DNA from: a virus
Length of the DNA: 64,000 bases
Reading direction: 5' to 3' (one strand)
IMG/VR virus record: IMGVR_UViG_3300002091_000031
Location: 973-64,972 of that record
The position numbers were made by a program, and so were the translations under genes. This document shows, in pieces, positions 63,187 to 63,331 of this stretch. Position 1 is the first letter of the stretch. Every line of letters starts with the position of its first letter. Under the pieces are notes generated by a model, which worked only from the letters and a program-made list of their open reading frames with translations, made no database searches and was not told the DNA's origin.

Positions 63187-63331
63187 TGATAGGTGTTGAA
63201 AATGGCAGACATGCCTCCTTGTCTCGGAGGTGCTGACAAAGAAATAAAGACAGAATAATGGGTTGACCACACGGTAGCGATATGTTTTGTTCCTAATCTC
63301 AGCGTGGATGGTTCGAATCCTCCCCTATCAG
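63187..63331 (+). tRNA. tRNA(GTC), Asp-like, with a Leu-type D arm and a 74-nt variable-arm insertion
   Basis: TGATAGG/CCTATCA, G73; CCTCC-TT-GTC-TC-GGAGG; insert closed by TGCTGA/TCAGCG; T-arm GGA(T)GG-TTCGAAT-CCTCC. Confidence 0.7.

Follow-up and report, generated by a model that had tools for sequence, protein, structure and literature searches.

To our knowledge, few tRNA look-alikes act off the ribosome; examples are the cell-wall tRNA-Gly species, YrlA, and the tRNA-like ends of viral RNAs. TRNAs that decode have near-universal U33 and a purine at position 37, and the aspartate identity set of E. coli consists of G73, G2-C71, G10, G34, U35, C36, and C38. The tRNA-Asn of the bacterial indirect pathway is served by a non-discriminating AspRS plus the amidotransferase GatCAB (PMC1635274, PMC2811023, PMC4206432). 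The determinant for bacterial GatCAB is a U1-A72 pair and the absence of G1-C72 (PMC1635274).

The window analyzed here (the whole 64,000-nt stretch of DNA) is part of a 65.5-kb phage contig of about 31% G+C, with genes for a ribonucleotide reductase, a UvsX-like recombinase, an SbcC-like nuclease, ClpP, DnaJ, and tmRNA. A neighboring kinase-like gene has relatives on contigs as long as 380 kb, which places the phage in a jumbo lineage. A tRNA array runs from 61229 to beyond the end of the window. Within it, on the plus strand at 63187 to 63331, is a 145-base element with an aspartate-tRNA-shaped body; its cloverleaf is of the 7/5 type, with GUC as anticodon, U37, C38, G73, and a variable arm of 74 nt.

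The cloverleaf parts of the element are as follows. The 5' strand of the acceptor stem, UGAUAGG (63187 to 63193), pairs with 63324 to 63330 and includes U1-A72 (U63187-A63330) and G2-C71; the 3' strand, CCUAUCA, together with the discriminator G73, occupies 63324 to 63331, and CCA is not encoded. The trailer begins CAAC, like those of the neighboring tRNAs, and host tRNA-Asp genes likewise lack an encoded CCA. U8 and G9 precede the D arm (63196 to 63212), which has a 3-bp stem (UUG/CAU) and a AAAAUGGCAGA loop of the class II tRNA-Leu type; U10 and U26 are unpaired in this copy. The anticodon arm (63214 to 63230) consists of the stem CCUCC/GGAGG (63214 to 63218 with 63226 to 63230) and a 7-nt loop, UUGUCUC (63219 to 63225), with G34 at 63221, U35 at 63222, C36 at 63223, U37 at 63224, and C38 at 63225. 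The T arm (63306 to 63323) is formed by GGA(U)GG/CCUCC, with U63309 bulged, and has the loop UUCGAAU.

Between the anticodon and T stems is the giant variable arm (63231 to 63305), made up of the 74-nt insert (63231 to 63304) plus U63305 and closed by GCUG(A)/(U)CAGC. From its base helix (63232 to 63235 with 63300 to 63303), the arm continues through a second helix (63240 to 63242 with 63297 to 63299), two internal loop strands (AAAUAAA at 63242 to 63248 and CCUAAUC at 63292 to 63298), and a 9-bp helix (63249 to 63257 with 63283 to 63291) to an apical domain (63258 to 63282). The apical domain contains the motif UGGGUUGACCAC (63259 to 63270), for which the family consensus is GGGUYGACCAC. As separate observations, GGUUGACC and GGUCGACC are palindromic or nearly so, making dimerization conceivable from the sequence, and the 3' trailer (window 63332 to 63359) can form a hairpin of six perfect base pairs, CUAAAU/AUUUAG, unchanged in the close variant L002. 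The trailers of the neighboring tRNAs all start with G73-CAA(C)(A)UAAAU.

This gene is entirely overlooked by standard tRNA finders and by Rfam. ARAGORN did not call the element at default settings or with introns allowed, nor did the Rfam tRNA model (RF00005), even at E ≤ 10. Rfam 15 had no match on the element or on three bacterial copies, either at gathering thresholds or at E ≤ 10, and at E ≤ 10 the insert matched no intron or ribozyme family. Neither the window element nor either of two further family members was matched among GenBank phages. Our literature search found no description of such an RNA family, and no family in Rfam 15 corresponds to it. A computationally discovered tRNA-like motif of Bacteroidetes, "Bacteroidete tRNA," is reported to be among those of Weinberg et al. 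2017 and, if so, may be the same family; the name is absent from the main text of that paper and from the other literature searched. Single-sequence folding did no better than shuffled sequences (z of -0.98 for the whole RNA and -1.58 for the insert), and the case for a structured RNA thus depends on comparison with relatives.

Close variants were found on one IMG/VR contig (L001/L002) and on several JGI metagenome contigs (L003, L007, and L009). Among three distinct close variants, five compensatory pairs fall in five different helices (acceptor, D, T, arm base, and arm middle), and the apical 49 bases of the arm are unchanged. The D stem, for instance, is GCG/CGC in L002 and L003, a compensatory change relative to the window copy, and L003 has a G-C to A-U change in the T arm. 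A peat-metagenome variant, G63253A, converts a G.U pair to A-U, and the same pair is G-C in L002. The element is near-identical at the DNA level in freshwater, marine, peat, and lake runs; on contigs from a freshwater and a marine run it is unchanged where the neighboring 101-nt tRNA has been swapped out.

The wider family supports the same structure. Across 81 distinct members, compensatory change occurs at 38 of 42 pairs, and 93.5% of cells are paired, compared with 47 to 56% when the partners are slid. By helix, compensation reaches 7/7 pairs in the acceptor stem, all 5 pairs of the arm base helix, and 9/9 pairs of the 9-bp arm helix, and the anticodon stem covaries at 4/5 pairs. RNAalifold, run on an independent plain MAFFT alignment of 21 mid-size members, arrived at this structure as well, with compensation at 26 of 39 pairs. 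The substitution pattern in these sequences indicates that the element is a real, conserved, structured RNA. The original prediction had described a 145-nt tRNA(GUC) whose variable arm is replaced by a 74-nt structured insert closed by TGCTGA/TCAGCG with further internal pairing, and had suggested that it could be a tRNA-scaffolded functional RNA, with an insert off the canonical intron position and far too short for a self-splicing intron. Each of the listed sequence features can be read, and the comparison supports a tRNA-scaffolded structured RNA over a broken tRNA or an intron. The arm helices covary in the family, the insert separates the anticodon stem from the T stem and resembles no Rfam intron family at E ≤ 10, and compensatory change extends to every helix, insert included. 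The homologue and covariation search proposed in that prediction, with an unconserved insert named as the refuting outcome, found the insert both conserved and covarying.

We then asked how far the family extends. A model of the three close variants recovered homologues of 119 to 169 nt in related jumbo-phage loci, all with a GUCUC loop and G73. A DNA pattern consisting of the D loop plus the anticodon arm, used to scan IMG/VR and bacterial genomes, matched 49 IMG/VR contigs, where by our rough estimate fewer than one match would be expected by chance, and at least 120 bacterial genomes, nearly all Bacteroidota. Among the matches listed, the bacterial carriers were mostly Chitinophagaceae and Sphingobacteriaceae, with the genera Chitinophaga, Hanamia, Ferruginibacter, Sediminibacterium, Niabella, Pedobacter, and Arcticibacter represented. 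For a covariance model, R3, we used only 17 chromosomal copies from bacteria, drawn from an evenly sampled set of genomes of the phylum. R3 matched exactly window positions 63187 to 63331 with 111.3 bits (E of 1.9e-32), and the next match in the window scored 14.8 bits. Because R3 contains bacterial copies only, this test of membership is not circular. The window element almost certainly belongs to a family of tRNA-like RNAs shared by Bacteroidota and phages; as far as sequence can tell, it is the jumbo-phage copy of an RNA family widespread in Bacteroidota.

Family RNAs range from 74 to 197 nt, and the difference lies almost wholly in the variable arm, which spans 4 to about 125 nt. At the short end, L124 has a 4-nt variable loop and the same anticodon loop and ends as the rest of the family. 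Three members carry an extra 16-nt hairpin in the D loop (L013:17738-17906, L012:7824-7991, and L125:1725-1891). Many bacteria have tandem pairs of family copies (e.g., L179:5197-5310 with 5386-5530 and L230:4072-4247 with 4262-4435), which combine a short (about 110 nt) and a long (about 143 nt) form in Pedobacter and two long forms in Chitinophagaceae.

U1-A72 is present in 78/81, G2-C71 in 79/81, and G73 in 81/82 family members, and U8, G9, A14, the T loop, and the UGGCAGA of the D loop are conserved as well. G10 is missing in about half of the copies, including the window copy, which has U there. Within the arm, conservation centers on the AUAAA/CUAA internal loop and the apical GGGUYGACCAC. 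The apical motif is identical in 21/21 aligned mid-size members and present in 18/25 phage and 40/57 bacterial copies; no covariation was seen in it, which implies that the sequence itself is what is conserved. Since the invariance of the anticodon loop in pattern-harvested copies is partly built in by the pattern, we also inspected copies that the model found in the phylum sample. Their loops were UUGUCUC, CUGUCUC, UCGUCUC, CGGUCUC, CUGUCCC, and UUGUCCC, plus CUUUCUC in one genome. In these copies, a pyrimidine invariably occupies position 37, any of U, C, or G occurs at position 33, C38 is constant, and the anticodon is nearly always GUC. The sole exception is G140, in which both tandem copies (L287:1501-1610 and 1723-1831) read CUUUCUC, with the Glu-type anticodon UUC. 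A pyrimidine at 37 combined with a free position 33 is a pattern that argues against decoding.

Several points of the original prediction thus extend from one copy to the family: the AspRS determinants GUC, C38, G73, and G2-C71 are conserved throughout, and the Leu-like D arm and U37 proved to be family traits. The T-stem bulge it had listed is present (U63309) but is not a trait of the family, being restricted to the jumbo-phage lineage and L092.

The bacterial loci place the RNA beside a regulator. Among the matches listed, 102 of 120 bacterial loci have a divergent gene for a 157-aa Lrp/AsnC protein some 150 nt upstream of the RNA. The protein has an AsnC-type helix-turn-helix and an Lrp/AsnC ligand-binding domain, and its best NCBIfam match by far is AsnC, at an E of 7e-47 and under the equivalog cut-off. 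Across 151 evenly sampled Bacteroidota genomes, we found the RNA in 15 and a regulator orthologue (counted at ≥47% identity) in 16, namely the same 15 and one more. The two are on separate contigs in 4 of the 15 genomes that have both, so their link exceeds inherited synteny. In bacteria, then, both gene adjacency and co-occurrence couple the RNA to an AsnC-type regulator. Downstream of the RNA, trmB is found in 28 loci. The element is thus no invention of the phage but a copy of a chromosomal Bacteroidota RNA family coupled to that regulator. The link to the regulator points to Asp/Asn metabolism more than to the aptamer, nuclease-decoy, or small-RNA-carrier roles first suggested.

We also surveyed the asparagine genes of the hosts. 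All five complete host genomes have GatB alongside AsnRS and GlnRS. AsnA was not found in the five, and AsnB-type matches occur in them, above the family cut-off in 4/5. Two candidate signals were discarded. Although gatB is in all 15 RNA-bearing genomes, it is in 127 of the 151 sampled Bacteroidota overall, which makes its co-occurrence uninformative. Replacement of asnA in situ by the RNA is unsupported, as AsnA occurs in only 4 of the 151 genomes and there is thus no general asnC-asnA arrangement to replace.

Phages carry the RNA in two settings. The jumbo-phage copies sit inside tRNA arrays. In smaller phages (21 loci), the large terminase and portal genes follow the RNA at a distance of 0.4 to 0.8 kb, and most of these loci have at most one other tRNA gene by ARAGORN; on many contigs of smaller phages, little or nothing else resembling a tRNA gene turns up close to the terminase. 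By tblastn, neither the 65.5-kb contig, which represents a portion of the jumbo-phage genome, nor any of 137 phage loci had a homologue of the AsnC-like regulator. A weakly resolved tree separates the phage copies into four or more clusters, two of which are nested within groups of bacterial sequences, and places the window copy inside a supported jumbo-phage clade. With at least four label changes on this weakly resolved tree, phages probably acquired the RNA several times, each time without the regulator. Asparagine makes up 8.5% of long-ORF residues in the window phage, compared with 5.2% in host loci, the largest relative rise among the residues counted; other family-bearing phage loci are only slightly enriched, at 5.8%. 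The related array of L002 has three tRNA-Asn genes and, in the 12.5 kb analyzed, no ordinary tRNA-Asp.

The array around the window element contains other unusual genes. At window 63076 to 63176, 10 nt past a normal tRNA-Trp, is a 101-nt class II tRNA with anticodon CCA, G73, and a variable arm of about 29 nt; it is kept in L002, and two metagenome runs have 77 other letters in its place between identical flanks. A tRNA-like gene at 63480 to 63566 is given a 2-base anticodon by ARAGORN (6- or 8-nt loop). Its L002 homologue is Ser(CGA), with a compensated anticodon stem (CCCC/GGGG versus CCUG/CAGG). A second giant tRNA-like gene, of 149 nt, begins at 63941, runs to 64000, and continues beyond the window (contig C1:64913-65061). 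ARAGORN reads it as Gln(UUG) and assigns it an "intron" of 56 nt; the L002 version is 98% identical, that of L009 appears as Phe(GAA), and the gene lies outside the GUC family. Past the window end, a normal tRNA-His of 72 to 74 nt is accompanied by a 91-nt tRNA-His(GUG) (C1:65071-65161 and L002:8423-8513) whose D arm is of class II and whose variable arm is long. L002 also has, at 7036 to 7620, a different tRNA-Trp sequence followed by an HNH-type endonuclease ORF; some 570 nt of the L002 sequence have no counterpart in the window. The jumbo-phage relatives L012, L013, and L041 each have a 72- to 73-nt tRNA with the amber-reading anticodon CUA (ARAGORN "Pyl") beside tRNA-Met genes.

From the conserved positions, we consider it probable that the RNA has a non-decoding role. 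Host AspRS would load aspartate onto it; we infer charging from the constancy of the known Asp identity set. Several features would bar it from decoding: a pyrimidine at 37, a position 33 that is not conserved, an arm of huge size, and, in the jumbo-phage lineage, a bulged T stem. The RNA would act off the ribosome in Asp/Asn metabolism. Most likely it would serve as a carrier for the conversion of Asp to Asn by GatCAB, an enzyme that requires U1-A72; the window copy has the end features of a GatCAB substrate, U1-A72 and not G1-C72. The giant arm may then be a handle for release or for a partner factor. The phage copy, expressed from a tRNA array free of AsnC control, could raise the supply of asparagine for an AT-rich, Asn-rich proteome, or might instead benefit the phage by overriding host asparagine sensing. 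An Asp-charged, non-decoding tRNA look-alike, possibly a GatCAB-dependent Asn carrier, is the best explanation we can offer overall, and we hold it tentatively. The Asn-carrier mechanism taken by itself is possible but doubtful; with AsnB-type matches in 4/5 hosts, a second route to Asn is not obviously needed. The fuller scenario, in which a retired tRNA was rebuilt as a regulated carrier for amino acid synthesis, with the arm as its release or partner handle, and was later stolen by phages, is speculative, and we would not expect all of it to hold.

The same genetic context could be read as that of a sensor or regulator. The RNA would report Asp/Asn status through its charging state, or through protein binding to the arm motif, in a circuit with the AsnC-type regulator, and the phage copy would manipulate the host's amino acid starvation response and not Asn making. 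Its tight pairing with an amino-acid-responsive regulator would suit such a function, as would an arm motif that is invariant without covarying, typical of a binding site, and the AsnB-type enzymes that the hosts already have. The conserved acceptor end, G73, and U1-A72 suggest that the 3' end is used chemically, beyond its shape. We regard a sensing or regulatory role as unlikely.

A decoy or sponge, as the original prediction had proposed, would soak up a tRNA-targeting nuclease or toxin, or a tRNA-binding protein, and so shield the real tRNAs. The phage side offers some grounds for it, as the array is rich in abnormal tRNAs and in GUN anticodons, and the terminase loci of the smaller phages mostly have so few other tRNA genes. 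Yet the RNA is chromosomal in at least 120 bacteria and lies under an AsnC-type regulator, neither of which phage counter-defense requires, and no recurring defense or toxin gene adjoins it. We therefore consider a decoy quite unlikely.

Could the RNA be a working tRNA-Asp whose loop and arm confer resistance to anticodon nucleases or alter decoding? Its cloverleaf is complete, with GUC as anticodon and the Asp identity set present, and engineered tRNAs are reported to accept aptamer hairpins in a long variable arm (PMC7590224). Nevertheless, every copy has a pyrimidine at 37 and several have C or G at 33, features that general knowledge of tRNAs makes unfavorable, and U1-A72 takes the place of the tRNA-Asp pair G1-C72. 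The window copy has the U33 that the family does not conserve; it departs from a decoding tRNA-Asp in U37, a 75-nt variable region, U1-A72, and the lack of any tRNA-finder call. Ordinary tRNA-Asp genes coexist with it besides. Niabella and Pedobacter have canonical ones, with G1-C72 and A37, and phage contigs L103, L112, L121, and L132 have both an ordinary tRNA-Asp and the giant-arm RNA, which makes the latter an extra species. A decoding isoacceptor is, on these grounds, distinctly improbable.

Charging by SerRS (or LeuRS) through G73 and the long arm, which would place Ser (or Leu) at GAY codons, is very improbable. The class II D arm, long arm, and G73 do resemble the serine identity set (PMC7609411), and the Ser-like combination of G73 and a long arm is there to be read in the window copy. 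The long arm is not a constant feature, however, since L124, with its 4-nt variable loop, keeps the same anticodon loop and ends; what is constant fits the Asp set plus U1-A72, and the non-decoding features of the loop apply here too. Our reference criteria for class II tRNAs were A73 for Leu and Tyr and an arm of about 10 to 25 nt. Measured against these and against allo-tRNAs, the window copy falls outside all of the Leu, Ser, Tyr, and allo-tRNA classes in its G73, its 74-nt arm, and its 7/5 helix with one bulge. Finally, a dead tRNA gene, or one interrupted by an insertion or a removable intron, would explain the ARAGORN and Rfam misses and the unremarkable folding z-scores, but it is hardly credible given compensatory change in every helix including the insert, an invariant motif within the insert, near-identical DNA in freshwater, marine, peat, and lake runs, and an insert that is off the intron position (37/38) and matches no Rfam ribozyme or intron family.

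A gene for a Ro60-like (DUF2828/DUF7788) protein lies 10 kb upstream of the element, and we looked for the CNGCAA handle, defined as a 7-bp closing stem, three bases, and then CNGCAA. Three copies elsewhere in the window fit this rule. Two candidates at the element were rejected: the insert reads CUGACAA, and the C of that sequence is U in L002, and CAGCAA at 63329 to 63334 is the acceptor end, G73, and the common CAA trailer.

The RNA is widespread in soil and freshwater Bacteroidota and combines a clean genetic partner, a conserved RNA domain, and probable repeated capture by phages. The proposed carrier function could explain why these bacteria, which have AsnRS and GlnRS, retain GatCAB, and because hosts such as Pedobacter and Chitinophaga can be cultivated, the idea is directly testable.

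Among known systems, the tRNA-Asn of the indirect pathway is close to the giant-arm RNA. The two would share U1-A72, the proposed charging with Asp, and hosts that have GatCAB, here despite AsnRS and GlnRS. Unlike that tRNA-Asn, the giant-arm RNA has GUC instead of GUU, a pyrimidine at 37, a class II form with a 74-nt arm, and a link to an AsnC-type regulator, and its product would be unusable for Asn codons. Host tRNA-Asp shares G2-C71, G73, G34-U35-C36, and C38 with it, but is a class I tRNA of 75 nt with G1-C72, C32, U33, and A37.

The class II tRNA-Leu (RF00005) is alike in its 3-bp D stem, AAxUGGCAGA loop, long variable arm, and 7/5 acceptor/T helix, and the family model cross-matches tRNA-Leu-sized genes at 55 to 62 bits. 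In contrast to tRNA-Leu, the giant-arm RNA has G73 and not A73, U1-A72, a GUC-Y-C loop, and an arm that is up to five times longer and contains conserved motifs. Allo-tRNAs and aptamer-tagged tRNAs are likewise irregular class II molecules with non-Ser/Leu/Tyr anticodons that tolerate hairpins in the arm (PMC5389517, PMC7590224). Allo-tRNAs have 8/4 or 9/3 acceptor/T helices and serine identity, whereas the giant-arm RNA has a 7/5 arrangement and a naturally occurring arm of far greater size and conserved sequence. Y RNAs that contain a tRNA-like module (YrlA, RF02553) are similar in being non-decoding RNAs that imitate parts of tRNA, and the Rfam YrlA model has no match on the element; the giant-arm RNA differs from them in having a true acceptor stem and in carrying its extra domain at the variable arm.
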